Part shown: piece by piece, positions 1,423 through 22,191 of the stretch
Layout: each line of letters opens with the position of its first letter
Position numbering within the stretch: the stretch's first letter is position 1
DNA from: a virus
Taxonomy: Duplodnaviria; Heunggongvirae; Uroviricota; Caudoviricetes
Direction: 5' to 3' (one strand)
Virus record (IMG/VR): IMGVR_UViG_3300017792_000001
Coordinates: 213,602-277,601 of that record
Length of the DNA: 64,000 nt
Translations under genes and position numbers: made by a program
Notes under the pieces: generated by a model
Told to the model about the DNA's origin: nothing
The model's database searches: none
The model's input: only the letters and a program-made list of their open reading frames with translations

Positions 1423-2787
1423 ATGGCTATCGACAAAGCGACGTTGAAAGAAATGGTTGGCAAGCGTATCACCATCGACGGTACCAAACACCGTGTGGAA
1501 AAAGTGGTCATGAAGACCGGCCTGATCGTCACACGCGATGGCGCAGAGGCTCTGGCGGAGGGCGTCTACAAGAAAGGTCCTGGGTTCTTCTATGACTCGC
1601 CGAAGGGCAGCAAGAAGAAGGCTGCAGCCGCTGCCGAACCCGTGAAAGAAACTGCGCGTGCTCGCCGTGCCCGTGAGAAGGCAGAGGCTGAGCCAGTAGA
1701 GACAGCCCGCGAGAAACGTGCGCGTCTCAAGCGTGAAGCCGAGGAAGAGGAGGAACCAGCCAAGCCTGCGCGTGCTCGCCGTCGTTCCTCTGACAAGACT
1801 CCTGGCGCCAAGGGTGACGGTGCCAAAGTCCCTGGCAAGAAAAAGAAATTGTTTGAAGCGTTCACCCAGGCCATTGCCGAGCGTGTCAGTCAAGAGTCCT
1901 ACGATCTGCTGGCCGAAGCGTACGGTGATCGTGGTGACTACGCCATCACGCCTGTTGCTGTCGGCGCCGCGTTCGACAATGACGCGCTCAAAATCACCAT
2001 CACCGTGATGTCGGCGGGCAAGTCGGCGAAGGAAATCAAAGCCTACATCCGCGACCATCGCGAGGCTACAGACATCGCCAGTGACGACGAGGAAGATGAT
2101 GACCTCGACGATGATGATCTGGAAGACGATGACAGCGAAGACGAGGACCTGGAGGATGACGACAGCCTCGAAGACGAGGAAGATGACGAGGAGGACGATG
2201 ATGACTCCGAAGACGCCTTCGAGGCTGCGTTGAACGAACTCTCCTTGAAGGATCTGCGCAAGATCGCCAAGGACATGGAAATCGACGACTACAAGGACTT
2301 CTCCAAGGAAGACCTGGCACAAGAACTGTCCGAGTACGAAGAATCGGATGTCCGTGAATCGGCAGCCACTGCCGGCGTAACACTTGGCGATGGCGACGAG
2401 GAAGACGATGATGCAGAAGATGACGATGACGATGGATCGGAAGACGATGCCGACGACGAAGAACAGGAAGAAGCGGCTACTGTCGAAGACCTGGTGGGCG
2501 AGGTACTGGAAGTAGCACCAGACCTGAAAGCCAAGTCGGTCACCAAGTTTGTTGAAGCGTTCCTCGCCAACGACGAGTGCCAAGAGAAGTTTGACGGCGA
2601 ACTCGTACCTGGCCGTACCCAGCTGCAAGAGAAGGGCAACAAGGGCCCTGAAATGTTGCTGCTCGGTTACGACGAAGCCAACGAAGTGATCAAGCTGCTG
2701 AACATCAGCACCGGCAAGACTCGCAGCAAGACCATCAGCGAAGTCGTCCACATGGAAATCCTGGAAGCGGCTGACGACGCCGAGTAA
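1423..2787 (+). CDS. Multidomain acidic protein with Rho-N/HeH-like nucleic-acid-binding motif
   Basis: Basic K/R/A linker, two D/E tracts flanking LNELSLKDLRKIAKDMEIDDYKDFSKEDL; GAGG RBS. Confidence 0.75.
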   Translation: MAIDKATLKEMVGKRITIDGTKHRVEKVVMKTGLIVTRDGAEALAEGVYKKGPGFFYDSPKGSKKKAAAAAEPVKETARARRAREKAEAEPVETAREKRARLKREAEEEEEPAKPARARRRSSDKTPGAKGDGAKVPGKKKKLFEAFTQAIAERVSQESYDLLAEAYGDRGDYAITPVAVGAAFDNDALKITITVMSAGKSAKEIKAYIRDHREATDIASDDEEDDDLDDDDLEDDDSEDEDLEDDDSLEDEEDDEEDDDDSEDAFEAALNELSLKDLRKIAKDMEIDDYKDFSKEDLAQELSEYEESDVRESAATAGVTLGDGDEEDDDAEDDDDDGSEDDADDEEQEEAATVEDLVGEVLEVAPDLKAKSVTKFVEAFLANDECQEKFDGELVPGRTQLQEKGNKGPEMLLLGYDEANEVIKLLNISTGKTRSKTISEVVHMEILEAADDAE

Positions 2788-2794
2788 CACCACC

Positions 2795-2810
2795 GGGGCC
2801 TCCGGGCCCC
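2795..2810 (+). terminator. GC hairpin (cUCCGg loop), no U-tract; terminator or mRNA-stabilising stem
   Basis: GGGGCC-TCCG-GGCCCC just after stop. Confidence 0.45.
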
Positions 2811-2843
2811 AACCCCTACGAACATGATGCCGAGATAACTACC

Positions 2844-3317
2844 ATGCTTGATTCAATTGCTGAGCTTTTCCGTTTAGCGACGTTCTTTCCGAAACTGACG
2901 GGCCTACGCAAACACGTAGAGCCAAACACTGGTGATTGCACCAACATCGAGTCGATCGGCATCGTCGTGCGTTCTGTAAATGTAGAGTTCGTTCGCTATA
3001 AACAATGTGGTGATCCGCAGGTGCTGGTTATGATTCACAGCACCGAACGTGGTTCTGCCATGTTCATGTGCAACAGCAAGATTCTGGCTGACAGCGAACA
3101 GGCAGGCAAACTCCTGTACAAGCTGATCGACTCGGATCTAAAGGATCTGGTGGACGAAGCCAACGATAAGGTGTTTCGTGAAGGCATGCGTCAATTGGAG
3201 CTAAACAGCGCCATCCGCCGTGCCACGCCTGTAGTGAGTGACGCTCAGGCTGACGACTTCATCAACAAAACTTCCGACGGTGAGTTTGCCACCGTATCCG
3301 AATTCTATAAAGGCTGA
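2844..3317 (+). CDS. Hypothetical protein
   Basis: 157-aa ORF in co-oriented run. Confidence 0.7.
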   Translation: MLDSIAELFRLATFFPKLTGLRKHVEPNTGDCTNIESIGIVVRSVNVEFVRYKQCGDPQVLVMIHSTERGSAMFMCNSKILADSEQAGKLLYKLIDSDLKDLVDEANDKVFREGMRQLELNSAIRRATPVVSDAQADDFINKTSDGEFATVSEFYKG

Positions 3318-3322
3318 TTGTC

Positions 3323-3670
3323 ATGAGTGAGTCTCTGCAAGTAATCCTAGCTGACTTCATTGGTGACGATGAAATCAACTGCTCCGTATTTCCCGAGGAC
3401 CAATTCGGCCTGCCTGAAGTTGACGGCAAGATCACCGAAGAAGCTCTCACCGTGCTGGGCGAGTTTAACCTGCTCGCGGCTGATCGCAACGTCGTTGCCA
3501 TCCCTTGCGCCATTCAAGGCGTAACCGGTGTGTTCATGGCTAAGCTGGATGTGGAGCTGTCCGACAACGACTTGCAGGTATATGCGATGTTTGCAGAGCC
3601 TGTGATCGCAGGCAACCACGTCGAGGCACTCAACTGCCAACGCTTTATCGCCCTGCTGAAAAAAGTGTGA
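3323..3670 (+). CDS. Hypothetical protein
   Basis: 115-aa ORF tightly packed with neighbours. Confidence 0.7.
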   Translation: MSESLQVILADFIGDDEINCSVFPEDQFGLPEVDGKITEEALTVLGEFNLLAADRNVVAIPCAIQGVTGVFMAKLDVELSDNDLQVYAMFAEPVIAGNHVEALNCQRFIALLKKV

Positions 3671-3690
3671 ACAGTAAGCAGGAGGTGCCT

Positions 3691-5079
3691 ATGAAAGCAG
3701 AAGCATTACAAACCTGTCTGAATGACCTGTATGAGCGCAACTTTCTGGTGCGTACTACGGACAAGAAGGCTAACCACCTTGAATACGAAAAGCGGTTCGA
3801 TACCGTGTTCCATCATCGGTTCGTGTTCAAAGGTCGGCTGATCGACGAGGAGATTGACATCGTGCCTGCGCTGCCGAAAGCTGCACTCTCGGGTATTGTG
3901 CTGGGCGCCATCAATGGCAACCTCCCCGACATGGCAACCGTCGCTATGATGTACAGCGCCGGCTTTGCACTGCCGCACGATTTGGTCAAAGCAGAAGCAT
4001 GGGGCTGTTTCGCCTGTATGCAGCCAGCGCCAAACGCAACGTATGTGCAAGCCATAGCAAGTTTGAAAGCCGATCACAAGCAGGCACAAGCGCGAGCGCG
4101 TGACGAAATGATCTGGCCCGAGGAGTTCGAGGAAACAATCGAGACCGTCCTCACCAAATGCAATGCGTTGCGCCCGTACAAGAACCAGCCGCTCCCTCGT
4201 GGCGCACTGATCACACCACGCCTCGCTGGCGTGAAGATCAATCTGGTGTACCGCGCATACAAGATCGGCGACAAGTTCCACGCTCACCTGTACGGTGCGT
4301 TCATGCACATCGGCGGCAAGATCGTGTATACGTTGGATCAACTGCGCTATCTGGACATTCCGATTGAACTCGGCATGCACGGTCCGCGCAAGATCATCAA
4401 CAACTATACACCGTTTGGTGAGACTGCAAAGTTGTACGTGGTTCAAGGCACTCTGGTTGCGCCGAAGGGATTGCGTGAAGATATGCGCAAGCACTTCCCT
4501 GACGTGCGAACTGTGAAAGACTTGTTAGACCACTATATGGCAAGCCTGAAGCGCGTTCGTATTGACGACTTCGGGTTTGTTATTGCGGACCTGCGAGAGA
4601 AGCTGCGTGAGTGTACGTCGCGCCTTGCACGGTACGCTGGCAAGAAGAAGTATGCTGATGAATACAGCAAACTCCAAAAGCGTAAAGCCAAGTTAGAAAA
4701 GCGCATCGAGAACGAGTCTGCCGAGTTGGAAGCGGCAAGGGCGGAATATGTAAAGACACTGCCTGAGCACTACGTTCGATTCGTGGCGACTGGAATGTTT
4801 GTATACCAGAACGGCAAGCTGATGGGCCCGCAAGTGCGTATCCGTACTCCCGTTCACCTGCAATCGCTGGGTTTCCGAACCCTGTATCATCCAGTCGTTG
4901 AGTTTGTTGGCTATGAAGTCGAGAAGGATGGGTCACTATCTGGATTTGATAATATCATCGCCAAGTTTGAATCAGCATTCGATGACCAGTACACCGTGAC
5001 AGGTTTGACTATCAGACCTGGTGCGCAAAGTGTAAACATTAACCGTTGCTACTCGTATACGAAGTCAAAAGGAGAATAA
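3691..5079 (+). CDS. Degenerate NAD+-dependent DNA ligase adenylation-domain homologue (probably inactive)
   Basis: TPRLAGVKINLVY ~ motif I (KxDG), YVVQGTLVAPK ~ motif III, LQSLGF, YTVTGLTIR ~ motif IV; GGAGG RBS before ATG 3691. Confidence 0.55.
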   Translation: MKAEALQTCLNDLYERNFLVRTTDKKANHLEYEKRFDTVFHHRFVFKGRLIDEEIDIVPALPKAALSGIVLGAINGNLPDMATVAMMYSAGFALPHDLVKAEAWGCFACMQPAPNATYVQAIASLKADHKQAQARARDEMIWPEEFEETIETVLTKCNALRPYKNQPLPRGALITPRLAGVKINLVYRAYKIGDKFHAHLYGAFMHIGGKIVYTLDQLRYLDIPIELGMHGPRKIINNYTPFGETAKLYVVQGTLVAPKGLREDMRKHFPDVRTVKDLLDHYMASLKRVRIDDFGFVIADLREKLRECTSRLARYAGKKKYADEYSKLQKRKAKLEKRIENESAELEAARAEYVKTLPEHYVRFVATGMFVYQNGKLMGPQVRIRTPVHLQSLGFRTLYHPVVEFVGYEVEKDGSLSGFDNIIAKFESAFDDQYTVTGLTIRPGAQSVNINRCYSYTKSKGE

Positions 5080-5082
5080 CCC

Positions 5083-6138
5083 ATGACCACTATCGCCTCC
5101 GAAGCTGATCGCCTCGCCCAACAAATCGTGAGCGAGCAAGACAGCACCGAGCCCCTGACCGCAGTTGCTACTGCCGCTACCCGCGCCGACCTGGGCGAAA
5201 TCAACATCCCGGACGTCGATGACGGTGTTGACAGCGAAGACGAGTTCCAACCACGACTGCTGAGCCAAATGCTTTCGCAAGCTGCTGGTGAAGTCGGCAT
5301 GGTTCGTCTGAGCATCAAGCCGAACCTCGCATTCGTGCTGAACCTGTTCAACGACCAGATCCACGAAGAACTGGTTACCGTCGGCAACTTCGAGAACGAG
5401 GGTGATTCGTTCAACATCATCCAGCCGCTCGCGAAGAAGAACGAGCGCTCCGGCCGCGTCGGCGTGCTGCGTGAACCGATGCGTGAGTTCGTCAAGGTGT
5501 TGAACACCATGCTCGACTACACCGACACCATCGTGACCAGCCCTGAATCGGGTACCACGATCGTCGATGCGCTGGTGACTGAATTCACCACCCTGGCCGA
5601 GAACACCCTGTTTGCAAACTTCCCGCTGATCGACGGCCGCCGTGCAATTCCTGTGCTGTCCGGCGACGAAGAAGCTCCGGGCTACCTGCTCGACGTGAAC
5701 CACTTCCTGCGCGTTCACACCCTGATCGAAGCGCAGCAAGACGTTGCCGAAACCGGCCTGGTTACCGACGTTACGGTAACTGTGAAATTCGTTGTACATC
5801 TGCGCGTTCCGTTGTTGCTGCGTGAATCGAGCGACAAGTTCGAGAAGACCCTGAAGGGCCACTTCAAGTACCTGGAAAACGCTGGCACCAAAGCTGGTAT
5901 CCCGACCACGATCTACGCTGGCTTCAACTCTACCGACCTGGCAGCGCCTGCGGTCGTCAACGCTCTCAACTGGATTCGCGAAACCGATCCAGGCATGGAA
6001 GTGCTGTCGTACCGCAATGCTGATCAAGGCGGTGATTTCCTGGGCGTCCCGGGCTTTGAGTCCGAAGACTACGCCGACACCCTGTTCAACGGCGGCGATT
6101 TCATCGTCGCTTTCAATCTCGAAAATGAAGGTGAGTAA
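5083..6138 (+). CDS. Hypothetical acidic protein
   Basis: 351-aa ORF, AAGGAG RBS, strong codon bias. Confidence 0.8.
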   Translation: MTTIASEADRLAQQIVSEQDSTEPLTAVATAATRADLGEINIPDVDDGVDSEDEFQPRLLSQMLSQAAGEVGMVRLSIKPNLAFVLNLFNDQIHEELVTVGNFENEGDSFNIIQPLAKKNERSGRVGVLREPMREFVKVLNTMLDYTDTIVTSPESGTTIVDALVTEFTTLAENTLFANFPLIDGRRAIPVLSGDEEAPGYLLDVNHFLRVHTLIEAQQDVAETGLVTDVTVTVKFVVHLRVPLLLRESSDKFEKTLKGHFKYLENAGTKAGIPTTIYAGFNSTDLAAPAVVNALNWIRETDPGMEVLSYRNADQGGDFLGVPGFESEDYADTLFNGGDFIVAFNLENEGE

Positions 6139-6143
6139 GTAAC

Positions 6144-6746
6144 ATGGCTAAGAAAGAAAAAGCTGCCAAAGGCGATAAGAAAGTTCGCAACACTGCGAAT
6201 CGCCTGACCCGTGCCGACAAGATCGAAAAGCGCCTGCGTGGCGTCAGCGCCAAGACCTCGTTCAAATCGAAGTCTGCTCTGTTCACCTTCCGTGTTTTCC
6301 GCCTGGCCCCGGTTGCTGTTCACGGCTTCATCCTCGCCGAAAACGCCGACAGCATCCTGCTGCGTCACAAGCGCACCAACGCTTCGAAGCGCATGGTCGT
6401 GAGCCGCATCAGCCACAGCGACATCATCGAGCTTTACGGCACCGTCGGTGAAACTTCCAGCGCGCTGGTCGTGAAAGAAACCCAGATCCACGAAGTCGTC
6501 GGCAAGATCGTCGAAGACAAGGGCGGTGTTATCACCATCCAGACCGCATCCGGCGAAACTGTGAAGTTGTTCCAGAACGCACAGTCGCGCATCGAAGTCT
6601 CCGTTGAAGACGAAGGCGGCAGCGAAGAAGGCGGCGGCAAGAAGTCCAAGAAGTCGAAGGCCGACAAGCCTGAGAAGTCTGGCAAGAAAAAGAAGAAGGC
6701 CAAGCCTGCGGAAGATGATGACGAAGACGACGACCTCGACGACTGA
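6144..6746 (+). CDS. Hypothetical protein, beta-rich core with K-block/D-block tail
   Basis: Ends GKKKKKAKPAEDDDEDDDLDD. Confidence 0.8.
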   Translation: MAKKEKAAKGDKKVRNTANRLTRADKIEKRLRGVSAKTSFKSKSALFTFRVFRLAPVAVHGFILAENADSILLRHKRTNASKRMVVSRISHSDIIELYGTVGETSSALVVKETQIHEVVGKIVEDKGGVITIQTASGETVKLFQNAQSRIEVSVEDEGGSEEGGGKKSKKSKADKPEKSGKKKKKAKPAEDDDEDDDLDD

Positions 6747-6764
6747 TCATCCGGCCTGGTAACT

Positions 6765-6801
6765 GTAAACTGCTAACACACAGTACACGTTAGCAGTTTA
6801 C
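6765..6801. repeat. Perfect 13-bp inverted repeat with 11-nt spacer
   Basis: GTAAACTGCTAAC ... GTTAGCAGTTTAC. Confidence 0.9.
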
Positions 6802-6861
6802 TGCGGTAAGTGTAAAATCAATTCGTATTAGTTCACAACTCAAACAAGTGGAGATTCACAC

Positions 6862-7380: not shown

Positions 7381-7578
7381 TTCCTGATCCCCGGTCGGCG
7401 CGTGGGCTAGGTTGCGACTGAGCGCCCACACTCGATTCATCATGCTGCATCCAGGAGGTGAGAGTTGAGTTTGCCTCCTGTCACAAAAGTTTGAGCATCA
7501 TAATTCTTTAGCTGCTCTAAAAGTCTGGCGACACATTGAAGCTGCCGCCGCTTACCACTCAAACAGGAATACCGAACA

Positions 7579-8184: not shown

Positions 8185-8238
8185 TCATTCTGCGGCATCG
8201 GCCAGGGGCTTCCCGGACTACGTCTGGGTAGCCTAAAG

Positions 8239-8279
8239 AAAGCGCGCCCAAAACTTAATTGTGAGTAGGCGCGCTTTTT
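8239..8279 (+). terminator. Rho-independent terminator
   Basis: AAAGCGCGCC ... GGCGCGCTTTTT. Confidence 0.65.
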
Positions 8280-8296
8280 CCGTTTTGGAGTCCGTC

Positions 8297-9407: not shown

Positions 9408-10124
9408 ATGGATATCTACCCAATGCGAAATTTCTACAGCTGCGGCTGCTACGTCGCAGATGATGTGCCGGTCATCAGTCGCTGCGGGGAACACAACGGC
9501 TTCGTGATCTGCCGAACCAACTGTCGCGTTACAAACCCACGTCAGTTGATCATTGGTAAGCGCAAGCGGTTGAAGATCATCCATCACAACCTGTATGACG
9601 TGCTGTCGATGTTGAAGCAACCCGTGGATCTGGTGTTCGCATACCCAGAGCACGACCTGTTCATGATGCCGCACATGCTCACACCGTTCGGTTTCAGGAA
9701 TAGCCGTGTCGAGGTGTTCAAACACGTTGCACGCCTGCTCAAGCCCGATGGCAAGGCAGTTTTCTTGATCGACCCAATCGACCTAGCGACTGTGTTGTAC
9801 CAGGCCAAGCTGCGCAAGTTTGAAGTGCATACGCGCTTCTTTCCAGTGGTCATTCGACCTGAGCCACTTCGGTGGAGTAAGTCGCTTGAGAAACACAAGG
9901 TCTATAAAATTGCCGTGGGGTTAAACACTGGACCCCTTCCTCAGCTCCGTCTTGACGACCTCACGCCGTTCTTTGATGCGCTGAACGTTCCAGACGCGGG
10001 CAGGATATTGGACCTTTCCTGTATTCACATCGGTGCTGTCAAGAAGGCAAGACCGAATTCGAAAATTGTAGGGATATGCGAAGATGCAAACCGTTACCGA
10101 AAATTCATTGAAGCCAACAGTTGA
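9408..10124 (+). CDS. Degenerate N4/N6 DNA methyltransferase-fold protein
   Basis: KIIHHNLYDVL..VDLVFAYPEH ~ DPPY region; RLLKPDG; GRILDLSCIHIG ~ FxGxG region; IVGICED. Confidence 0.55.
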   Translation: MDIYPMRNFYSCGCYVADDVPVISRCGEHNGFVICRTNCRVTNPRQLIIGKRKRLKIIHHNLYDVLSMLKQPVDLVFAYPEHDLFMMPHMLTPFGFRNSRVEVFKHVARLLKPDGKAVFLIDPIDLATVLYQAKLRKFEVHTRFFPVVIRPEPLRWSKSLEKHKVYKIAVGLNTGPLPQLRLDDLTPFFDALNVPDAGRILDLSCIHIGAVKKARPNSKIVGICEDANRYRKFIEANS

Positions 10125-10905
10125 ACAGACAGCCCTGTTGTGGGAATTGGTGCTACCCGATCCAGCTTTCGACGAAGCTGTAGAGCGCTGCATCGCCAAA
10201 GGCCGTGAAGACCTGGCGCTGTACGAAGGCACCAAGACCTACGCATACCAGATGACGCTGTGCGTGATCACCTCGATTTTCAACGAAGCCATCAAGCTCG
10301 TTCACTTCGACGGTGAGTTGCTGCACATCTTCATGAAGAACAAACTGCCGCCGAACCACATCATGTTGCTCAAGCGCCTGTTTGACTCCAAGATGTGGCT
10401 GCCTGACAAGGTGCTGCACGACATTCTCGGTGGCGAGCAAGCCCTGTTCTCTGTGCGCGAACAAGTAGGTGACGACGTACTCGAAACGACCTACACAGGG
10501 CTCACGTCCTACGAAGGTCCAACCGACTACACCGAAATCAAGGATCTGCTGATCGCTGCCAACGTCCTGGACAACCACAACACGGTTGCTCTTGTGTACG
10601 AAGTCGGCGGTCTGCGTGAAACACCGTACGAAAATGCTCGGTACGACAACCTGACCTCGCGGTTCATTGGCGGTACAGAACGGTTGATCGACACCTTGAT
10701 GTTTGCCCGTGAACTCCAGGGTGATCCCTTAAAGCGTAAAGCAGTTGTAGCAGAGGCTGAACGTTACTTCGCCGCGACGAAGTTTAAGGTAGTCCCAAAG
10801 CAAACTACCCAGATGAAGCTCGACGATGCGCGTAAAGAGGCGAAAGAAGCCGCGAAGCCATTCAAGACGCTCAAGAAGATGAAGAAGGCTGCCAAGGCCA
10901 AGTAG
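10084..10905 (+). CDS. Hypothetical protein with basic C-terminus
   Basis: 273-aa ORF. Confidence 0.75.
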   Translation: MQTVTENSLKPTVEQTALLWELVLPDPAFDEAVERCIAKGREDLALYEGTKTYAYQMTLCVITSIFNEAIKLVHFDGELLHIFMKNKLPPNHIMLLKRLFDSKMWLPDKVLHDILGGEQALFSVREQVGDDVLETTYTGLTSYEGPTDYTEIKDLLIAANVLDNHNTVALVYEVGGLRETPYENARYDNLTSRFIGGTERLIDTLMFARELQGDPLKRKAVVAEAERYFAATKFKVVPKQTTQMKLDDARKEAKEAAKPFKTLKKMKKAAKAK

Positions 10906-10914: not shown

Positions 10915-11571
10915 ATGGCGAAGAAGCCCTACAAAGGCATCACAAAAAGCCGCAGCAACACCAGCGGCCGTAAGTCTGCTGCAAAGCGTGAAGCTGAGAA
11001 AACGAAGGAACGCATGACGGAGCGCAAAGCCGTTCTGCATACGTCGAAGCGTAGCGGCAAGGAGCGACTCGCCAAAGGTGTTCCCTACAAACTGAAACGT
11101 CTGGAGGCAATGCCTGTACGGCAGCTTCCAGCGACAGCAGCCAATCAGAAAGGGCGCACGCTGCGTCAACTCATTCGTGGCACACCGAAGCTGTTCATCA
11201 ACAACGCGGTGGACGTTGAAGCCAAGAAGATTGAGCGCAAGAAGACCAAGACCGGACGCCCCGTCATTATGGGGCAGATGGTTACTTGGGACCCGTGGCG
11301 TAAAGACCGTGTGCGCCGTGTGCATGATGCGTACATCATCGGTCTCGACGATGACCCAGACAAGCCGATCAACCGCCACCAGAAAGTCTTGGTGCAATGT
11401 TCGTGCGAGAACTTCGTCTACGTCTGGGAGTATGCGAATGCCACGGTTGGTGCGAGTCGCCTGATCTACTCGAACGGTGAGCCACCAAACTTCACGAACC
11501 CGAAGCTCGCTGTTGGTCTATGCAAGCACTTGATCGCGCTCGCCAAGATCATCATGGAGAAAGACGTATGA
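10915..11571 (+). CDS. SWIM-type zinc-finger protein
   Basis: VQCSCENF ... GLCKHLIAL (CxC..CxH); very basic N-half. Confidence 0.7.
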   Translation: MAKKPYKGITKSRSNTSGRKSAAKREAEKTKERMTERKAVLHTSKRSGKERLAKGVPYKLKRLEAMPVRQLPATAANQKGRTLRQLIRGTPKLFINNAVDVEAKKIERKKTKTGRPVIMGQMVTWDPWRKDRVRRVHDAYIIGLDDDPDKPINRHQKVLVQCSCENFVYVWEYANATVGASRLIYSNGEPPNFTNPKLAVGLCKHLIALAKIIMEKDV

Positions 11572-12176: not shown

Positions 12177-12680
12177 ATGAGCGAACACGTCCAGTTGCTT
12201 GCAAAGAACATCGAAATCGACACGCTGCAAAAGACGGTGGTCAAGCTGAGTCTCGACCTCGCCACCGTTACGCACGAACAAGGGCTGCTCAAGAATGCCT
12301 ACAACCAGCTCAATGAAAACGCCGTGCAGCAAGCGGATCAAATGAGCAAAGCCAACGTTGCTCTGGTGCTGGAGAAGAACGCGGTTGAAGAAGCCCGCGG
12401 CCGTCAGCAAGAACGCATCCAGGAAATGGAAGACGACCTCACTGGGGTGCGCCACGAGAAAGACCGGCACGAAATCATCTACACCCACATCTTCTCCGAA
12501 ATCAAGAACGGCAGTTCGATCATCATGCTGCCAGGCCATAAGTCTCTCGGCAAGGTCAAGAAAACCGACCTGCGGATTGAACTGAACTCAGGGCACACGC
12601 TCTCTGGTATCGTCACGTACATCGACAACCTGTACCAGCAGATCGACAATCCAGAACTTCGGAGATTACTGCGCGCATGA
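12177..12680 (+). CDS. Coiled-coil hypothetical protein
   Basis: 167-aa heptad-like ORF. Confidence 0.7.
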   Translation: MSEHVQLLAKNIEIDTLQKTVVKLSLDLATVTHEQGLLKNAYNQLNENAVQQADQMSKANVALVLEKNAVEEARGRQQERIQEMEDDLTGVRHEKDRHEIIYTHIFSEIKNGSSIIMLPGHKSLGKVKKTDLRIELNSGHTLSGIVTYIDNLYQQIDNPELRRLLRA

Positions 12681-13696
12681 GCATAGACAAGAACCTCACT
12701 GGAGAACAAATCCAGAAGGTCATGGATATGCTGCTGTACAAAGCGCTTGAACCTATCATGCTTCACTCGAATGTGTTTGATGCACAGGTGTCCCACATCC
12801 TCACGACAGTAACGACAAACCGTAAGCGCAAGTTGTCCAGCGTGCCGCGGGAGTTGCTGACTGAGAACTTGGCCGCTGTGCTCGCACGCAATGACGGTGC
12901 AACCAAGTTCAAGACGTTTCGTGAATGCCGCATTGAACGCTCCTTCATTCACTGCTTCATCAAGCGGTTTCTGGAGGTCAACCATGAATTTCTGGACGTG
13001 TATCGTGCGTGGCTGATTGATCCGACCAGCGAGCGCAAGAACCACGTAGACAATCTGGCGTATGTCCACGGCGGGTGTCACAAGCGGGCAGATATGTACC
13101 GCATCATGACGCACAGCGCAGACTACCTGGACAAGTTCTACGCATTCCGCGCCAGCGTACTCGACAACTACCTGCGTCATTCATCGACCCAGGCCAAGTC
13201 GCACGTCGCTGCAAACTCACACAACCAACTGAGCTTCTCCGACCTCAAGCAATCAATTTTGAAGGCTATGGTCGTCGCTCTCGATAAGTACGACAGCAGT
13301 AAGGGCGCACTCACCACGTACATCAACTGGTGGGTTCTAAATGCCCAGACGTGCAGTGCTGATCACGAATATGGTGTCGCATATACCGTACCTCAAAGCC
13401 AGCGCCGCCGGCTCGCCGAAGGCAAAAGCAATGAGGTTAATTTCAGCGTCTCGCTTGATGCGTTGAAGAAACCGGGTGATGAAGATGACCGCTCGTTGTA
13501 CTCGTCCTTGTCGGACGGGCATTTCATGGATGAAGATTTCGAGCGGCTGGAAAGTCAGCAACTGGTGCAGTTGTTAGCCAAGGAAGTCGATAGAGGTGGA
13601 GTCGCCCGATTGACTCTGGACATCGGAGAATTTTTCACCAAAGAAGAACGTGAACTCATGCGCCGTCACACGCAAGAGGAAACTGTTAATAACTAA
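12677..13696 (+). CDS. Phage RNA polymerase sigma factor (sigma70 family, no clear region 4)
   Basis: SDLKQSILKAMVVALDKYDSSKGALTTYINWWV = region 2; VSLDALKKPGDEDDRSL = region 3.2. Confidence 0.8.
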   Translation: MSIDKNLTGEQIQKVMDMLLYKALEPIMLHSNVFDAQVSHILTTVTTNRKRKLSSVPRELLTENLAAVLARNDGATKFKTFRECRIERSFIHCFIKRFLEVNHEFLDVYRAWLIDPTSERKNHVDNLAYVHGGCHKRADMYRIMTHSADYLDKFYAFRASVLDNYLRHSSTQAKSHVAANSHNQLSFSDLKQSILKAMVVALDKYDSSKGALTTYINWWVLNAQTCSADHEYGVAYTVPQSQRRRLAEGKSNEVNFSVSLDALKKPGDEDDRSLYSSLSDGHFMDEDFERLESQQLVQLLAKEVDRGGVARLTLDIGEFFTKEERELMRRHTQEETVNN

Positions 13697-13722: not shown

Positions 13723-14997
13723 ATGAGTGGATTTGGAAACATCCAGCCACGCACAGGTAACAAGGATTCTGTTCGTCTGGAAGAAGTCATTAAGATGCAC
13801 AAATGGCCCGCCGACGAATGGAGCCAAGTGCGTTTCATGCCAGGCAAGATTCTGCCAGTTAAGCGTCACTGGATCAGCATCATCGCAGGCAAAGACAAGA
13901 AAGAAATCACGATCCCTCGTTATTGCCTGGCGTTCGACAACAACAACGAGAACGAGCCGCGTAAAGACGCGAAGGGCAAGCCGATCAAATGCCCGTACTG
14001 CGACCTGGCTCACGGCCAAGACGCAAGCGCTCGTTACGAGTTCTTCTACCTGGCCAACGCGATCATCCGTGAAGTGCAGGAAGATATGCCTGCTCGCGCC
14101 AAGAAGATCGAGCGCACCAAGGAAGAAAAGAAGACTGGCTTCAAGGACATCAGATCGAAGTCCTGGACCCCGGTAGAAGTTTGTCGTATCACCTCGACGG
14201 TCGCGAACCGCATCAAAGAGCTGGGCGACGGCAACTTCGTCAAGAAGGGTGGCGAGAAGAAAGCCTTCGACGTTACTCACCCGAAATACGGTATCGACAT
14301 CCGCGTCAAGTACAAGCCGAAAGCATCCGGCACCGAGAAGTACAGCGCTGACAAAGACGACCGCACTCCGCTGACCGACGACGAGTTGAAGTACCTGATC
14401 TGGCGCCTCGACGAAACCCTGATCGACGTGACCGGCCGCATGGAACCTGCGCAGGCTCTCGAAGACTTCAAGCGCATGGAAGTTGTCGGTGCTGACGAAG
14501 TTGACGACGACAGCGAAGGCTACAGCCTGGGCGACGACGACGGCAAGAAGAAAAAGAAGAAGGGCGACAAGAAGAAAAAGTCGGCCGCCTTCGATGATGA
14601 CGATGACGATGACGAGCCTAAGAAAGGCAAGAAATCATCCAAGTCCTCGAAGTCTTCCAAGAAGTCGAAAGAAGATGATGCTCCGAAGAAAAAGAAAAAG
14701 GCCAAGCCTGCTTTCTCTGACGACGATGATGACGACGATGACGAGCCGAAGAAAAGCAAGAAATCTTCCGGCGACAAGAAGTCCAAGTCGAAAGACAAGG
14801 TGAAGTCGAAGAAATCTTCTTCTGACGACGCACCGAAGAAGAAAAAGAAGGCCAAGAAAGAGGAAGACGAGCCGAAGAAGAAAAAGAAATCTTCTGACAG
14901 CAAGAAGTCCTCGAAGTCTTCCAAGGACAAGAAGGCCGACAAGCCAAGCTCCAAGAAAGGCAAGAAGAAATCTGCCTGGGACGATGACGACGAATAA
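13723..14997 (+). CDS. Single-stranded DNA-binding protein (T4 gp32-like) with long charged tail
   Basis: VRFMP, H..C..CPYC zinc ligands, FDVTHPKYGIDI; next to recA; tail ends SAWDDDDE. Confidence 0.75.
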   Translation: MSGFGNIQPRTGNKDSVRLEEVIKMHKWPADEWSQVRFMPGKILPVKRHWISIIAGKDKKEITIPRYCLAFDNNNENEPRKDAKGKPIKCPYCDLAHGQDASARYEFFYLANAIIREVQEDMPARAKKIERTKEEKKTGFKDIRSKSWTPVEVCRITSTVANRIKELGDGNFVKKGGEKKAFDVTHPKYGIDIRVKYKPKASGTEKYSADKDDRTPLTDDELKYLIWRLDETLIDVTGRMEPAQALEDFKRMEVVGADEVDDDSEGYSLGDDDGKKKKKKGDKKKKSAAFDDDDDDDEPKKGKKSSKSSKSSKKSKEDDAPKKKKKAKPAFSDDDDDDDDEPKKSKKSSGDKKSKSKDKVKSKKSSSDDAPKKKKKAKKEEDEPKKKKKSSDSKKSSKSSKDKKADKPSSKKGKKKSAWDDDDE

Positions 14998-15030: not shown

Positions 15031-15046
15031 GTTTCTGGAGATACGC

Positions 15047-16528
15047 ATGGCTAAGTCGAAAAAGAAGGACGTCGCTGTTATTGACGTCTCGGGAGATTCA
15101 GTCCCGTCGAAGAAGAAAGGCAAGAAGGGTAAAGCCCTTGCCGAGGTTGCACCGTTCAATCCCTATGCTCACTTGGGCACTGAGATTGACGCGATGGAAA
15201 AGAAGTTCGGCCTGACGTCGATGGCAGTGAGCGAATCGGAAGATCGCCTGTCCACCGGCCTCCTGTCGATTGACGTGAACCTCGCTGGTGGTCTGCTGCC
15301 GGGTGGCTGGTACACGTTCTTCGGTGGTGAACAGTCGTGTAAGTCCACGCTCGCCACCACAGCAATGGGTTCGATTGCAACTAACGCCACGTTCCAAGGC
15401 ATTGGTGCAATGTTCGACTACGAAGGTTCGTTCCAGGCTGACTACGCCGAGAACATCTTCAAGTACATGAACCACGGCAAGCGCATTTCGGTTGATAACG
15501 TCTTCGGCGTGAAAGACCAGAAGGGTTGGGTTATCCCACCGCGCGTTCGCTACTACGCACCGTCTGTTGGTGAAGACTTCTACAACTGGCTCGCCAAGCT
15601 TGAGAAGACTCTGCCAGACCTGATTCAAGAAGATGGCAAGTTCTACTACATCTTCGAGAACACCAAGGTCAACCAGAAGGCGCTGTCCGGCAAGTACGAC
15701 AAGGACTTCTTCCGTCGTGAAGGTAAGTTCCGTCTGCCTGCCCCGAACGGTATGCCGCAAGCGGTCGTACTCGTTGACTCGTATCCTGCGATGGTCCCTA
15801 AACAGACCGACGACAAGGACGAGGGCGACAAGTCCCTGGGTTCACAAGCCCGTATGCACGCTGCAAACTTGCCGCGTGTGAAAGGCGCAATGCGTTCGAA
15901 GCGGATCATCGTGCTGGGTATCAACCAGTTGCGTGACATCCCGATGGCCATGTACGGCCCGACCGAACAAGAACCTGGCGGTAAAGCGCTGCGCTTCTAC
16001 TCCGACTGTCGTTTGAAGATGACTTCGGTCAGCGTTCCCCACGCCAAAGGCCAGTTCGAGGAAGAAGACACAATCTCCGGTGAAGGTGCTGACAAGTACC
16101 GCTACCTGAAGTGCAAGGTGCAGAAGAACAAACTCGGTGGCCCACAAGCCGCTGAAATCTCGCTGCGCATTCGCGTTTCGGACGCCGATGGTAACGCCTC
16201 CGGTTTCTGCCGGTGCTGGGACGCATACCAGTACCTGAAGATGACTGGGCAACTCGGTGGCAATCGCAAGAAGCTCAAGTTCCTGACTGGCCCGCTCGAA
16301 GGCATCACTGTCTCCTGGCTCCAGTTCAAGGCCCTGATCGACGGCGATGCAGCGATGATCAAGAAAGGCTGCGAGAAGCTGAAAGTGAAACCGTTCCGCT
16401 TGTACGAATGGTGTCGCAAACAGGTTGTCGAGAAGCAAGCCTATCCTCTGCTCAAGGCTGCCATCAAAGCCGAGAACACCAAGTCCAAGCAGCCTGCGGA
16501 AATCGCTGAGGGTGCTGACGAGGAGTGA
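15047..16528 (+). CDS. recA: RecA/UvsX-like recombinase
   Basis: LSTGLLSID, Walker A GGEQSCKST, VLVDS, INQLR, PGGKALRFYSDCRL, KNK. Confidence 0.92.
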   Translation: MAKSKKKDVAVIDVSGDSVPSKKKGKKGKALAEVAPFNPYAHLGTEIDAMEKKFGLTSMAVSESEDRLSTGLLSIDVNLAGGLLPGGWYTFFGGEQSCKSTLATTAMGSIATNATFQGIGAMFDYEGSFQADYAENIFKYMNHGKRISVDNVFGVKDQKGWVIPPRVRYYAPSVGEDFYNWLAKLEKTLPDLIQEDGKFYYIFENTKVNQKALSGKYDKDFFRREGKFRLPAPNGMPQAVVLVDSYPAMVPKQTDDKDEGDKSLGSQARMHAANLPRVKGAMRSKRIIVLGINQLRDIPMAMYGPTEQEPGGKALRFYSDCRLKMTSVSVPHAKGQFEEEDTISGEGADKYRYLKCKVQKNKLGGPQAAEISLRIRVSDADGNASGFCRCWDAYQYLKMTGQLGGNRKKLKFLTGPLEGITVSWLQFKALIDGDAAMIKKGCEKLKVKPFRLYEWCRKQVVEKQAYPLLKAAIKAENTKSKQPAEIAEGADEE

Positions 16529-17949: not shown

Positions 17950-18457
17950 GCAGGAGAAGTATCAGGAAGGGTTGTGTTTGATCTGCACCCGACACTTCTC
18001 TACGCTGCACTGGCACCACACAGTACCGCAAGCACTTGGCGGCAAGGACAGTTTGCAGATTCCACTCTGCGGTTCTTGTCACACGCAACTCCATGCGCAT
18101 GCGGAGGGAATCGTTGCCCAACAACGTGGTGGCCGGAAGATAGGTCGCAACTACTGGACCGATCACACGCAAGAAGAAAATGCAAAACCCTACTTAGAAA
18201 TACTCGTGACATCCATCATGAACGCTCCAGCTTCTCTCGCAGGGAAGATGTACATGATCCAGTCGCGCATTCCAGCTGAGGTGCATCGTGCGCTTCATCT
18301 GTACAAGATGGATTCAGGGCTTCGGAACCTAGACCAAGCTCTGCTACTATGTCTCTCAGAGACACTCAAGAAAAAGGGTTATCTAAATGGAAATGACAAA
18401 CCGGACTCGTCGTCAAGTAAAGGCGAGCCTAAAAAGCCAGCAGCCCCTCTGTGGTGA
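17942..18457 (+). CDS. HNH-type zinc nuclease domain plus possible ribbon-helix-helix domain
   Basis: CLIC..HWHHTVPQALGG..LCGSCH..LH; C-terminal IQSRIPAEVHRALH. Confidence 0.65.
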   Translation: MSKQEKYQEGLCLICTRHFSTLHWHHTVPQALGGKDSLQIPLCGSCHTQLHAHAEGIVAQQRGGRKIGRNYWTDHTQEENAKPYLEILVTSIMNAPASLAGKMYMIQSRIPAEVHRALHLYKMDSGLRNLDQALLLCLSETLKKKGYLNGNDKPDSSSSKGEPKKPAAPLW

Positions 18458-19226
18458 CTGCGTAGGACTCAAATGCGAAAAGTTGATTGGTGACAACAAG
18501 CAGGTTTGCTCCAAGTTAGGTAAGACAGCGACGTCCAAAACGTGCCCGCATTTCATCGCCGACACGAAACCCCTCCAGCCGTTGCTCAAGCGCGATGCCT
18601 TCGACGCTTTGTCACGACTGCTCCAGGAAATTCCCAAAGACGCACTCCGCAATGTCGCCTCGTTGTTGTACAATGAGAAGAAGACACGGGCTGCCGGGTA
18701 TTTCTTCGGCCAGAAAGTTTACGTGCGTTATCGCGGTGCAGCAAACGCCGACTACCTGAGCAACTTCATGATCGCTCGGGTCATGTCCGTAAACAGCGAA
18801 TTCATTCGCCTCACCTCGCAAGACGGTAAGTGCAACCTCACCTTCATGAAGAAGACCTGTCAGGAGATTATCCTGTCGGTTGACGAGTTCGACGAACTCC
18901 GGAAGAAGATGGTTGCCAAGGGTCGTCTCGTTGACCCTGACGTCAAGAAGCTCATTGCCAAGAAGTACCGAGCCGAGGAGGAGTACGAACTGAACATGAA
19001 CAGCGAGAGCGCTGGTGGTCAAGTCACGACCATCGACTCCGTGTTCAAAGAAAACAACCTCCCACGTCGCAAGCCCAAGAAGACCGTCGATCTGGTCGAT
19101 CTGGTCAATGGTCTTATGGCTGGACACACCGACGTTGACAAGGCATCCAAGGGCTACAAGCGACCGAGCGACAAGCGCAAGACCAGCAACTCTGGTTACG
19201 AACGCATTGACGTATCGGGGGATTGA
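18387..19226 (+). CDS. Hypothetical protein with N-terminal Cys cluster
   Basis: CGDC..C..C..CPHF. Confidence 0.75.
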   Translation: MEMTNRTRRQVKASLKSQQPLCGDCVGLKCEKLIGDNKQVCSKLGKTATSKTCPHFIADTKPLQPLLKRDAFDALSRLLQEIPKDALRNVASLLYNEKKTRAAGYFFGQKVYVRYRGAANADYLSNFMIARVMSVNSEFIRLTSQDGKCNLTFMKKTCQEIILSVDEFDELRKKMVAKGRLVDPDVKKLIAKKYRAEEEYELNMNSESAGGQVTTIDSVFKENNLPRRKPKKTVDLVDLVNGLMAGHTDVDKASKGYKRPSDKRKTSNSGYERIDVSGD

Positions 19227-19229
19227 CCT

Positions 19230-20363
19230 GTGGATAGTTTGTGCTCAGCAATTCGTCACGTACTCAAAATGGATCTGGAGTCTGATCGTGCCAAGCAAGT
19301 CGCACAGGCAACAGTTCTGTACCTCTGCGGTGTCACTGACGCCTACGAGTACCAGCACTACATGAAGGCGAATGTCCGGTTTCGTGATCTGGACATTAGT
19401 GCGAAGGACTTCCGATTGATGCTGATCGAAAAGTCCTACTTTACGTTGAACGTCAAGTTCTGCGCCCTCAACCTCTGTAAAGTAGCAGTGTCACAGGACA
19501 GTTTGCAGCACTACGCCAATGCGTTTGAGATTGTGCGTAATGATGCGGTGATGCTGCGCCGTGTGTTCGAAGATCGGAAGTTCCGTCGCAACATGCGGGC
19601 GAGCGACCGACTGCAAGACATTCGACTCAAGGACATTGAAGAAGGTAGCGTCGAGAAGACGCAAGCGGACTTCAACGATATGTACCATGAGTTGATGAAA
19701 CACATCCGCCAGAAAACATTCAAGAAACTGCGATTCTTGGTGAAAGCGGAGAACAGTGAGTTCTCGGACTTTAACGGCGAACTCCTGTACAAAGCAATTA
19801 AGGCCTACTATATGATCGTCCCTACACAGAAGACGACAGCGCATGTGCTCAACTATCTCCGCAGTACCTGCACCAACCATGCGCTGAACATCATTGGCAT
19901 GAAGACCTCGGACAAGCGTCGCCGATTGAGCAACGTCGGTGGTGATGGATTTGGAGGCAACAACTTTAGCCTCACCTGTGTTTCTGAAAACCAGTTGGTG
20001 AAAGTCGATGGAGAGGACGGCCTGAGTTATGAAGGCTCGTTGAATGACCAGAACCACTCGGACAATAGCAACATGATTTCGGAGCTCAACTTCGAGCGCG
20101 TCGTGCAGCAGTACGGGAGGTCCAATCTTCGCCGTCGTGCGATCCAGATAGTTGCTGGTCAGGAAGATTCACGCTTTACTCGCTACCTGCGCGTGCGTGA
20201 GTTCATTCGTCCTGAAGAAGATTGCACCGATTTTGTCACCCGCACCAAACACGAAAATGTTGTCGTGTACCTCGCTGATCACCTCGGCGTACCCACGAAG
20301 CGCCTCGAAAAGTTCCTGAAAAAGGTGGGAACTGAATTGATCAAACACAGGAGCGTTGCATGA
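19230..20363 (+). CDS. Second, divergent sigma-factor-like protein
   Basis: FSDFNGELLYKAIKAYY...VLNYLRSTCTNHALNII resembles region 2; VSENQLVKVDGEDGLSY resembles region 3.2. Confidence 0.5.
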   Translation: MDSLCSAIRHVLKMDLESDRAKQVAQATVLYLCGVTDAYEYQHYMKANVRFRDLDISAKDFRLMLIEKSYFTLNVKFCALNLCKVAVSQDSLQHYANAFEIVRNDAVMLRRVFEDRKFRRNMRASDRLQDIRLKDIEEGSVEKTQADFNDMYHELMKHIRQKTFKKLRFLVKAENSEFSDFNGELLYKAIKAYYMIVPTQKTTAHVLNYLRSTCTNHALNIIGMKTSDKRRRLSNVGGDGFGGNNFSLTCVSENQLVKVDGEDGLSYEGSLNDQNHSDNSNMISELNFERVVQQYGRSNLRRRAIQIVAGQEDSRFTRYLRVREFIRPEEDCTDFVTRTKHENVVVYLADHLGVPTKRLEKFLKKVGTELIKHRSVA

Positions 20364-20722
20364 ACACTATCGACGCTTGCGTTCTCGAAAAAGCGGCATT
20401 TGCCTGTTTCGGGAATAAGTTGGAAGACAGCTTCAAACGATTGCTGTTTCTCAACATCGACAAGTATGTGAGTGAAAACCCGAACTGCACGGCTAACCAG
20501 TGCTACTTCAAAGTCCTTGAACTGATGGCAGTTGAACGCCCGGACTTTGACGCTGCCGTTCGCGCAATGAAAACCCCGTTTCAGCGGCTGTCGATCAACT
20601 CGTATGTCCGTAACAAGAAACAGTACATTCACCTGGTCCCATCTGAAAGTGAAAACTGGAAAGTATGGGTGAAAACCGTAACCGAGAACTACCCGGAGTT
20701 GACTATCTGGGTTAATGGGTAA
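20360..20722 (+). CDS. Hypothetical protein
   Basis: AGGAG RBS, ATGA overlap. Confidence 0.75.
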   Translation: MNTIDACVLEKAAFACFGNKLEDSFKRLLFLNIDKYVSENPNCTANQCYFKVLELMAVERPDFDAAVRAMKTPFQRLSINSYVRNKKQYIHLVPSESENWKVWVKTVTENYPELTIWVNG

Positions 20723-20727
20723 GACCA

Positions 20728-22191
20728 ATGCCAGCGCTGCTATTTGATCAAGACTCGGAAATTCGGTGTATCAAGACGCTCACCGACGAGTCGATACCTT
20801 CAGGTTTGCGCAGCACACTTCTCGGCAAGCTAAGTAAGGAGCATTTCTATAATGCTCCTACTCTGGCAGCATTCAACCGGATCGACACCCTAGCCAAAAA
20901 GCGCTTTGAGATTGTAGACCTCAACTCGCTGGTCGCCGATCCGGTGATCGACGAAGATTTGCGCGATATCCTAAAATCGCAAGTACGAAAAAAGAAGTCA
21001 TGCAGTAACAAGAAACAAGTTTCGAACATGCTGGATGTTCTCGAACGCTACCGCAAGATCCGCGCAGTCTATGGCATTGCCCAGGACAGCTTCAAGGAGC
21101 TTGAGAAGTCCGAGATTGACATCGACACCCTGTTGAACAAGGTGACTGAGGCCGTAGCGCGTGCGAATGCCTCTCTCGCCGAAGACCAGTTCTTCCTGAA
21201 CTTTGGTGTGAACGACACCTCTGCTCAGATCGTTGACCAAGTGATCAATCGCAAGGTCAGCCCGCGTATCAAGACTGGTTGGGTTGAATACGACAAGCGA
21301 AACGGTGGACTGCCAGAGCATGGCGTGTTCATTATCTCCGCGACAACTTCTGGCGGTAAGTCTGTTCTCGCCATGAACCTTGCAGTGCGTCTGTACCGCA
21401 AGAACAAGAAGTCCGTGTGTCGTATCTCGCTTGAGATGGATGAAGAACAAGAGACTCGCCGGATGGCGTCTCACTTGACCAAGATTCCGTTCAACAAGTT
21501 CAAGGATAACAAACTCAGTATGGCTGACAAGGCCAACGTGAAGAAAGCCTTCGAGGACTTCTCTGCGTTCGGTCTGAAACACGGCATCGCCTACACTACG
21601 ATTTCCCCGACTCGCGCTGTGTCTATTCACGACGTGTTCCGGATGATCAAGGCGTTTGCATACCAGATCATCATGATCGACTACATCGGTCTGCTTGCTG
21701 GTATGGACTCCGAGAGCCAGTGGTTCCAACTGAGCGAAGTAGCTGCCCACTCCAAGCGCTTCTCGCGTGAAGGTAGTAAGGCACTGGTCATCATTCTTGC
21801 CCAGCTCGATGATACGACCGACAAGCTGCGTTACTCCAAGGGTATCAAAGAACACGCCGACACCATGTGGCAATGGAACTACACGAAGCCTGAACAACGT
21901 GACGTCCGCATTCTGCCGATCCGCGTTGAGAAAGATCGTGATGGTGAAGTGTTCAACTTCGACCTGGCTGAGCGGTATGACATCATGACCGCAGAGAACA
22001 TGCCAGATAGCGCTGTCGATTATTCAGAGGAAGACGAAGATGCGCCGGCCAAAAAGTCCAAAAAGGACAAAGGCGGCAAGTCAGGAAAAGGAAGTAAAGG
22101 CGAGAAAGACGGTAGCAAGAAGAAAAAGAAAGTCCGAGCAACCACTAACGATGACGATGACGACTCCCCAGCAGAGTATGCCCTCGCTTAG
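20728..22191 (+). CDS. dnaB: DnaB-like replicative helicase
   Basis: IKTGW, Walker A ATTSGGKS, ISLEM, IMIDYIGLL, LAQL, KDRDG. Confidence 0.92.
   Translation: MPALLFDQDSEIRCIKTLTDESIPSGLRSTLLGKLSKEHFYNAPTLAAFNRIDTLAKKRFEIVDLNSLVADPVIDEDLRDILKSQVRKKKSCSNKKQVSNMLDVLERYRKIRAVYGIAQDSFKELEKSEIDIDTLLNKVTEAVARANASLAEDQFFLNFGVNDTSAQIVDQVINRKVSPRIKTGWVEYDKRNGGLPEHGVFIISATTSGGKSVLAMNLAVRLYRKNKKSVCRISLEMDEEQETRRMASHLTKIPFNKFKDNKLSMADKANVKKAFEDFSAFGLKHGIAYTTISPTRAVSIHDVFRMIKAFAYQIIMIDYIGLLAGMDSESQWFQLSEVAAHSKRFSREGSKALVIILAQLDDTTDKLRYSKGIKEHADTMWQWNYTKPEQRDVRILPIRVEKDRDGEVFNFDLAERYDIMTAENMPDSAVDYSEEDEDAPAKKSKKDKGGKSGKGSKGEKDGSKKKKKVRATTNDDDDDSPAEYALA

Follow-up and report, generated by a model that had tools for sequence, protein, structure and literature searches.

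The DNA analyzed here, called the window throughout, is a stretch of 64,000 nucleotides from a tailed phage of the class Caudoviricetes (IMG/VR record IMGVR_UViG_3300017792_000001, positions 213,602 to 277,601) and forms the last 64 kb of a virus record that is complete at 277,601 bp and has terminal repeats. The subject is a cassette of three adjacent genes that encode highly charged proteins, considered together with a neighboring candidate scaffold and with the charged tails of replication enzymes encoded nearby (Table 1). Proteins without an established name are designated by the first nucleotide of their genes in the window. A model that had read only the sequence and its open reading frames had proposed that these proteins compact the phage DNA and gather the replication and recombination machinery into a shell-less compartment, possibly shielding it from host defenses (hereafter, the original prediction). 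All of the open reading frames on which that proposal was based were recovered at their positions on the + strand.

Judged from its sequence, the phage is a PaBG-like jumbo phage of the “Lupandier” group (PMC7412058), within subgroup 2.2 of PMC7824862. Its RecA shares 84% identity with that of Pseudomonas phage PaBG, 53–55% with those of HRDY3 and Lu11, and ca. 42% with those of NCTB and of Erwinia and Dickeya phages; the gene order parallels PaBG gp132 to gp108. The 313 called proteins were used as the protein set of the whole genome. A search for tubulin (PhuZ) that detected 13 of 14 controls gave no match in the complete genome. For chimallin, phiKZ gp54 served as the single query, without a positive control, and no match was obtained at E 0.1 in the whole genome. 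An HU gene was not found in this genome.

Table 1. Positions of the features under discussion (numbering of the window, except where another record is named)
Feature	Position	Strand	Remarks
1423 candidate scaffold, 454 amino acids (aa), net charge -68	1423..2787	+	Ortholog of PaBG gp131
6144 protein, 200 aa	6144..6746	+	Predicted tandem small beta-barrel, Sm/Hfq-like fold at aa 40-158, K-block followed by acidic C-tip
ACTGTAAA motif	6762..6769	+	Annotated as putative middle/late promoter in Lu11
6862 polyanion, 172 aa	6862..7380	+	Basic N-terminus, two-helix head, acidic tract; ortholog of PaBG gp125
7579 K/A-rich polyampholyte, 201 aa	7579..8184	+	Coiled-coil-like head, repeats, acidic-aromatic tip DDFDDF; ortholog of PaBG gp124
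Intrinsic-terminator-like hairpin with U run	8237..8285	+	Closes the cassette 3' of 7579; z -3.15
SSB	13723..14997	+	Probably gp32-type; K-block/D-block tail at 14497-14994
UvsX/RecA recombinase	15047..16528	+	Basic N-terminal extension of ca. 35 aa, short acidic tip
DnaB helicase	20728..22191	+	D/K/D block tail at 22006-22188
H1-/AlgP-like K/A/P protein, 349 aa	G000 168612-169661; L022:2613-3662	-	Beside SbcD, outside the window

Gene order, net charge, and regulatory signals of the cassette

The order 6144-6862-7579 was kept in all 18 loci for which enough DNA was available (two of them near-duplicates) and also in JA11, Y3, and NCTB, i.e. in 21 of 21 cases. The clade that carries the cassette spans PaBG to Lu11, Yoloswag, and NCTB. 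Across it, the acidic protein retains a net charge of -74 to -107 despite lengths of 123–294 aa and a composition that may be D-rich, mixed, or pure E; the net charge of the K/A protein ranges from +14 to +31. The original prediction had named conservation of the cluster and tails in relatives as a check, and the cassette order, the net charges, and the charge pattern of the SSB are indeed all kept clade-wide. PaBG gp124/125/126/131/117, Lu11 gp163-165 and gp176, and Yoloswag gp320-322 (locus-tag numbers) are direct orthologs in the same order, and the cassette orthologs in these three phages carry only the annotation “hypothetical”. In a word search of PMC7412058 and PMC7824862, neither these genes nor any histone-like or acidic proteins were mentioned, and a literature search located no paper on these genes.

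Substitutions were compared with a close relative. In the 7579 tail, 12 codon differences are synonymous and one is non-synonymous. In the acidic tract, 12 of the 14 amino-acid differences are D/E swaps (the alignment of such a low-complexity region is approximate). By these sequence criteria the cassette genes and the tails are maintained and are not slippage debris, because they combine conservation, an excess of synonymous changes, swaps confined to D and E, SSB tails kept in relatives, and a conserved promoter motif and terminator-like hairpin.

The poly-acidic gene is immediately preceded by the ACTGTAAA motif or a near variant of it in PaBG, Lu11 (twice), Yoloswag (twice), L028, and L030, with six loci in all. 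In the window, the site overlaps a 13-bp inverted repeat (6765-6801). Sites of this type number six in the window against 2.2 expected, a count that was reached in 7 of 100 shuffles and is thus only mildly above chance; the motif is supported by its conserved position and not by its count. A TTTGAGCA-N-TAAT-type motif upstream of 7579 (window 7490-7515) is shared by about 7 of 11 aligned loci and may be a promoter or an operator. A candidate RNA hairpin upstream of 7579 was discarded, as its folding was not significant (z -0.3).

Predicted folds of the cassette proteins and of other charged proteins

For the 6144 protein (orthologous to PaBG gp126 and Lu11 gp163), AlphaFold produced a confident model of aa 40-155 that is nearly all beta structure and has the form of a five-stranded, bent small beta-barrel. 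Hfq, Sm, and LSm chains made up most of the top 50 rows of a full structural scan (Z 5.8-6.1, root-mean-square deviation 2.2-2.7 Å over 51-55 residues); Foldseek (E 0.001), Atlas, and PDB sequence searches returned nothing significant. Because of the aligned ranges and the two long, crossing strands of the model, each chain apparently comprises two barrels with their first strands exchanged. When three copies were modeled together, the self-association score was 0.67, compared to 0.00 for the best control; among solved pairs, 20 of 30 attained the mark applied to this score, as did 1 of 23 single chains. The predicted contact joins strand 150-155 to strand 84-90 of the neighbor, which corresponds to the beta4-beta5' contact of Sm rings. 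Contact agreement among the three-copy runs was only 4% or more (pLDDT 82 or more), and the best run featured a symmetric dimer with which the third copy was hardly in contact. The three-copy job was also unlike the calibration set and may have passed through its likeness to solved Sm rings.

A basic patch (K26, K29, R30, R74-H75-K76-R77, and R83) is conserved in the 6144 family, which forms 128 clusters at 50% identity and extends to GR11A, Xhv-16, KoPa-5, and RHph_I42. In 123 members surveyed for tails, a K-rich tail was present in 76, an acidic tip in 55, and a long acidic tail in 14. The predicted small beta-barrel, the beta4-beta5' edge pairing, and the disordered tail with its acidic tip are shared with Hfq, Sm, and LSm proteins, whereas the two barrels per chain and the lack of an Sm1/Sm2 or Hfq sequence signature set the 6144 protein apart. 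On the strength of the model, it probably acts like a tailed nucleic-acid binder of the Sm/Hfq type, though it is not a member of that family by sequence; no earlier description of a tandem Sm/Hfq-like phage family was found. In Hfq, the tail is required for binding to DNA, and condensates of Hfq, polyphosphate, and DNA form via this tail (PMC10954037). The genome of Xanthomonas phage PhiXhv-16 encodes two Sm-like paralogs, one of them with an acidic tail.

The original description of the 6862 protein as nearly pure D/E is accurate for its last 112 aa (90% D/E), but not for its basic N-terminus and helical head. The latter is a conserved, hydrophobic two-helix element of ca. 40 aa (about aa 22-58). 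The whole protein has a net charge of -99, and no Pfam family matched it. Linker histone H1 and prothymosin-alpha, to which this protein and its neighbor had been likened, present a disordered polycation beside a disordered polyanion. With 7579 and 6862, a polycation is likewise encoded next to a polyanion, in this case without homology. Like prothymosin-alpha, 6862 has a very high net negative charge in a disordered tract; unlike it, 6862 has about twice the charge and a folded head rather than a fully disordered chain, and the two are not homologous. In the acidic orthologs of Erwinia, Dickeya, and Yersinia phages and of NCTB, the tracts alternate with helical repeats that are HeH-like by eye.

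The designation of 7579 as H1-like was not upheld. Its conserved N-terminal head (ca. 55 aa) is a heptad-like helix, coiled-coil-like in character, and a winged-helix domain was not recognized (no Pfam linker-histone match at E 0.1). The repeats that follow are rich in K, A, E, D, S, and P. Unlike linker histone H1, the protein combines this head with 35% K/R and 20% D/E for a net charge of only +30 (the tail has 45% K and 18% D/E), and its charges are well mixed rather than blocky (kappa 0.13, the same as in shuffles).

A better H1-like candidate is encoded outside the window. This protein has a net charge of +97, only 3% D/E, and KPAA-type repeats. K/A/P-rich H1-like proteins are known in bacteria and phages, and the +97 protein fits the class of Pseudomonas AlgP (PMC9239181), chlamydial Hc1, and the moraphage H1-like protein (PMC12619734), to which 7579 conforms only loosely. 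Its PaBG ortholog, gp295, is a virion protein, since the computed mass of gp295 (35,272.5 Da) fits that of virion band gp191 (35,272.9 Da; PMC7412058). PaBG gp117, gp124-126, and gp131 were not among the 14 virion bands, which is a weak negative given the use of Coomassie and trypsin. A strongly basic counterpart is found beside SbcD in all 11 cassette-bearing genomes checked (+88 to +106 in those of Pseudomonas type, +59 to +68 in the others), and the charges of the polyanion and of the H1-like virion protein are in a ratio of ca. 1:1 in most Pseudomonas-type genomes.

The model of the 1423 protein consists of a PRC/SH3-like barrel (aa 1-61), a basic linker, an alpha/beta domain (ca. 141-222), an acidic tract, a SAP/Rho-N-type helical domain (260-325), a second acidic tract, and a Tudor/KOW-like barrel (384-448); the domain matches (Z 5-6) are at the fold level only. 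The Rho-N element noted in the original prediction was borne out: Rho_N matched aa 270-299 at E 1e-4 (below the Pfam cut-off), where the model places the SAP/Rho-N-like helical domain. Foldseek, Atlas, and PDB sequence searches yielded nothing significant for this protein. Its charge blockiness is above that of shuffles (kappa 0.36), and the modeled architecture fits a nucleic-acid-binding scaffold.

Charged tails on replication and recombination enzymes

The SSB is probably gp32-type on sequence grounds: it matched PHROG 15004 (“SSB”) at E 3e-118, Pfam gp32 matched 1 of 16 orthologs (E 6e-4), and its gene adjoins that of UvsX. There was no significant PDB sequence match, and Foldseek, Atlas, and PDB searches produced nothing significant. 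Charge patterning was assessed with kappa, as the original prediction had suggested, and the tails of SSB (166 aa, net +16; kappa 0.41 against 0.13 ± 0.03 shuffled, z 8.7), DnaB (61 aa, net -1; kappa 0.47, z 6.3), and 6144 (46 aa; kappa 0.52, z 7.8) were all blocky above shuffles. Most SSB tails, as well as the DnaB, 6144, and 1423 sequences, gave z values between 6 and 20. Tails of 96-253 aa were present in all 13 SSB orthologs measured, out to RSL1, Motura, BcepSaruman, GR11A, and RHph_I42, and 12 of the 13 were blocky (kappa 0.30-0.68). The SSB of Xanthomonas phage PhiXhv-16 (L015:3956-5425) was left out of these statistics because its acidic run shifts frame; the run turns into a TM/M repeat, probably an artifact of assembly or slippage.

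Matching block tails had been claimed for the replisome. Blocks of K and D are indeed carried by SSB, 6144, and this DnaB, but the RecA N-terminus is basic only and has no acidic block. The DnaB tail of HRDY3 lacks internal acidic blocks. Most tails are plain basic ends, with the K/D alternation confined to SSB, 6144, and some DnaB proteins. Nor does tailing extend to the entire replisome: the clamp, ligase, topoisomerase I, exonuclease, and sigma factor are untailed. K-tails are enriched on DNA enzymes. They occur in this genome on 7 of 22 DNA-acting proteins versus 1 of 41 structural or metabolic ones (Fisher p=0.002) and in PaBG on 8 of 26 versus 0 of 49 (p=9e-5). Throughout the genome, charged low-complexity segments or K-rich ends were noted in 30 of the 313 called proteins; those tailed or charged proteins beyond the window include DNA polymerase A, SbcC, the clamp loader, RuvC, and both topoisomerase II subunits. 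The string KKKKKAKPA, reported as shared by SSB and 6144, occurs in exactly these 2 of the 313 proteins, but it was rejected as a docking motif and is not a conserved motif, since most relatives lack the exact string in their SSB tails.

Streptomyces TopA is stabilized on DNA by lysine repeats that end in acidic residues (PMC5714199). The tails resemble those of that topoisomerase I in placing K-rich terminal repeats with an acidic end on a DNA enzyme; they differ in that many unrelated enzymes are tailed here and that, in the SSB, the K-rich repeats alternate with long acidic blocks. The C-termini of 6144, 6862, 7579, SSB, and RecA are short acidic tips, four of which contain Leu, Phe, or Trp (DDLDD, EDFD, DDFDDF, and WDDDDE), and the SSB of Motura ends in DDIPF, resembling the C-terminal peptide of bacterial SSB. 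From their sequences, the acidic tips may share a docking signal. A sigma-70-like phage factor (window 12677-13696) is encoded directly upstream of SSB-RecA, and the order sigma-SSB-RecA is kept, small insertions aside, in nearly all relatives viewed.

The same modules recur in other arrangements. The metagenomic relative L025 carries, as an insertion in the cluster (6256-6711), an HU-family gene (PF00216) whose product has a K/A tail; HU was seen only there. The Sm-like protein of this HU-bearing relative is fused to an acidic tract (P0037 is such a fusion). RHph_I42 gp206, encoded between RecA and the Sm-like gene, has both an acidic tract and a K/A tail, and in GR11A and KoPa-5 an acidic helical-repeat protein sits between SSB and RecA. 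RSL1 and BcepSaruman have no pure acidic tract of ca. 100 residues, and their SSB tails are among the longest and most acidic. At the sequence level, these arrangements link the cassette with the SSB-RecA machinery and with nucleoid proteins, but they are no demonstration of a phase. A possible link to polyphosphate was rejected: Lu11 gp158 (L002:8985-10097) carries the label of a putative polyphosphate kinase, probably in error, as its sequence is of the acidic low-complexity kind (net -68), and PPK2 was not found in this genome.

Several other features of the genome were recorded. It has only four tRNAs, Lys(TTT) (two copies), Asp(GTC), and Ala (G000 187459-187862, - strand), which match tail residues; PaBG has the same set plus Thr. 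Zero tRNAs were found in Lu11, HRDY3, Y3, JA11, Yoloswag, and NCTB, so the set is lineage-specific. It equally could replace tRNAs cut by host defenses, and a role in translating the tails was not used as core evidence. Proteins of 675 and 155 aa with long D/E tracts (window 44513-46540 and 48481-48948) flank the major capsid gene; the larger has the PHROG label “ATPase”, and from its position it may be a head scaffold or a core protein. More unknown-function proteins with basic ends are encoded at window 10915-11571, 10084-10905, and 28-438, the first of which has a SWIM-like Cys/His motif (weak Pfam match, E 0.08). Elsewhere, a 556-aa protein (G000 127384-129054, - strand) has internal K and D/E blocks ahead of a predicted membrane segment, and a 2004-aa helicase (G000 154669-160683, - strand) has D blocks; the PaBG ortholog of the helicase is the 221-kDa virion band.

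Interpretation of the charged proteins

The conserved cassette, its net charges, the SSB charge pattern, and the enrichment of K-tails therefore support a charge-based DNA-handling system, whose folds and self-association are predicted and whose binding events we infer. In the reading that we prefer, at a probability of ca. 0.45, the tails would tether enzymes to DNA, and the cassette would be a nucleoid set that includes a polyanionic chaperone or DNA mimic. Together they would form a toolkit, shared by the whole clade, with which phage DNA is handled in the open cytoplasm. The K-rich disordered tails occur selectively on enzymes that act on DNA; their lysine blocks would serve as non-specific tethers that raise residence time and processivity, with the neighboring acidic blocks damping or regulating them. 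The 6144 barrel, because of its predicted self-association and conserved basic patch, would bind nucleic acids multivalently, and 1423 would be a scaffold of several domains, among them a DNA-binding module of the SAP/Rho-N type. These two proteins and 7579 would coat the replicating genome as phage nucleoid proteins. The 6862 polyanion would act as a DNA mimic or as a chaperone that keeps basic proteins soluble and exchangeable; the H1-like virion protein encoded beside SbcD is, from its sequence, a plausible further client. The outcome would be a compact phage nucleoid, for which a distinct liquid phase is not needed.

Several observations weigh against this reading. The Sm-like assignment of 6144 is at the fold level only, with Z values of ca. 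6 that are in the range of common small barrels, and BirA SH3-like domains tie with Hfq, Sm, and LSm within 1 Z. None of 84 family members matched Pfam LSM or Hfq among the families listed (there were single weak matches to the RimP C-terminal SH3 and MscS beta-domains), and the Sm-like gene was undetected in RSL1, Motura, and BcepSaruman. The net charge of the SSB tails spans -75 to +16, and the tail of KoPa-5 has no blocks. In the Erwinia group, the H1-like counterpart (about +60 to +68) does not balance the polyanion (-89 to -100) at 1:1. The classes used for the K-tail enrichment came from the PaBG annotation, with a tail score and threshold chosen within this analysis, and a rank test of the tails was weaker (p=0.07 here, 0.012 in PaBG). 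Finally, the genomes compared are related and are not independent samples.

The notion closest to the original prediction, a liquid, shell-less replication compartment in which the polyanion, the polycations, an Sm-like hub, and the block tails would phase-separate with phage DNA and the K-tails would act as an address code, appears doubtful. The high kappa of 12 of 13 SSB tails, the presence of multivalent, charge-patterned disordered regions, and the multivalent hub predicted for 6144 are consistent with it, as are the tubulin and chimallin searches without a match. Condensates of Hfq, polyphosphate, and DNA (PMC10954037) offer a precedent in which 6862 could take the place of polyphosphate. 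SPO1 Gp27 is a precedent for phage-driven phase separation (PMC13401047); it too represents a phage-made organization of DNA transactions, but Gp27 is a single transcription factor. The nucleus of Chimalliviridae differs in being a protein shell, for which no chimallin or PhuZ match was seen here. In RSL1 and BcepSaruman, it is as if the polyanion had shifted onto the SSB. However, two-thirds of the DNA enzymes are untailed (including the clamp, ligase, topoisomerase I, and sigma factor), 7579 is not blocky, and the tails consist almost wholly of Lys, with aromatic and Arg residues being very rare. Lys-only tails poor in aromatics and Arg are weak drivers of phase separation, and simple DNA tethering predicts the same patterns. 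Nothing was found in support of shielding from host defenses.

An RNA- or host-directed role is improbable. The 6144 protein would then be an Hfq-like RNA chaperone or translational regulator, 7579 would compact or silence the host chromosome, and 6862 would be a DNA mimic that titrates host proteins of DNA binding or defense. The Sm/Hfq fold and conserved RHKR patch of 6144 accord with such roles, and acidic phage DNA mimics do exist (T7 Ocr and T4 Arn). The known mimics, however, are folded proteins and not homopolymeric tracts such as that of 6862. The cassette has been retained within a core replication block in phages of Pseudomonas, Erwinia, Dickeya, and Yersinia, whereas anti-host genes usually turn over fast; the promoter motif ahead of 6862 is also of the middle/late type. 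The action of 7579 could be likened to that of chlamydial Hc1, which, as cited in PMC12619734, lowers DNA and protein synthesis in E. coli. A function in virion assembly only, with 6862 chaperoning the +97 core protein into proheads or acting as a scaffold-like filler unrelated to the replisome tails, is less probable still. It would account for the occurrence of the PaBG ortholog of that protein in virions (by mass), for a strongly basic protein beside SbcD in 11 of 11 genomes, and for a late-type promoter motif upstream of 6862, but it leaves the fixed linkage to 6144 and 7579 and the site among replication genes unexplained, and the ratio of charge between polyanion and basic protein varies. 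That GAN and AAR codon runs expanded by slippage and were tolerated, in a lineage under relaxed size limits, is hardly credible. Imperfect tandem repeats are present within 6862 and 7579 (67-85% matches) and lengths differ between relatives, yet slippage would not be expected to yield the synonymous excess and D/E-only changes, a net charge conserved whether the tracts are D-rich, mixed, or pure E, or K-tails enriched on DNA enzymes.

Every part of the proposed toolkit has its precedent, whether in lysine-tailed enzymes, H1-like proteins, acidic chaperones, or Hfq; in the literature searched, no account was found of a phage clade in which they form a core module together. For jumbo phages without a nucleus, the question is how genomes of 200-300 kb are organized and replicated in the cytoplasm, and a small, conserved set of genes can now be named. 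Culturable carriers exist in PaBG (which grows on P. aeruginosa PAO1), Lu11, Y3, and JA11. A shell-less replication organelle, with a self-encoded Hfq-like hub, a protein polyanion in place of polyphosphate, a polycation, and enzymes recruited via lysine tails, is a shade more doubtful than the liquid compartment considered above; if real, it would be a second, chimallin-independent route to DNA compartmentalization in jumbo phages. Even without a condensate, the toolkit would represent a bacterial-virus counterpart of the histone-and-chaperone system.

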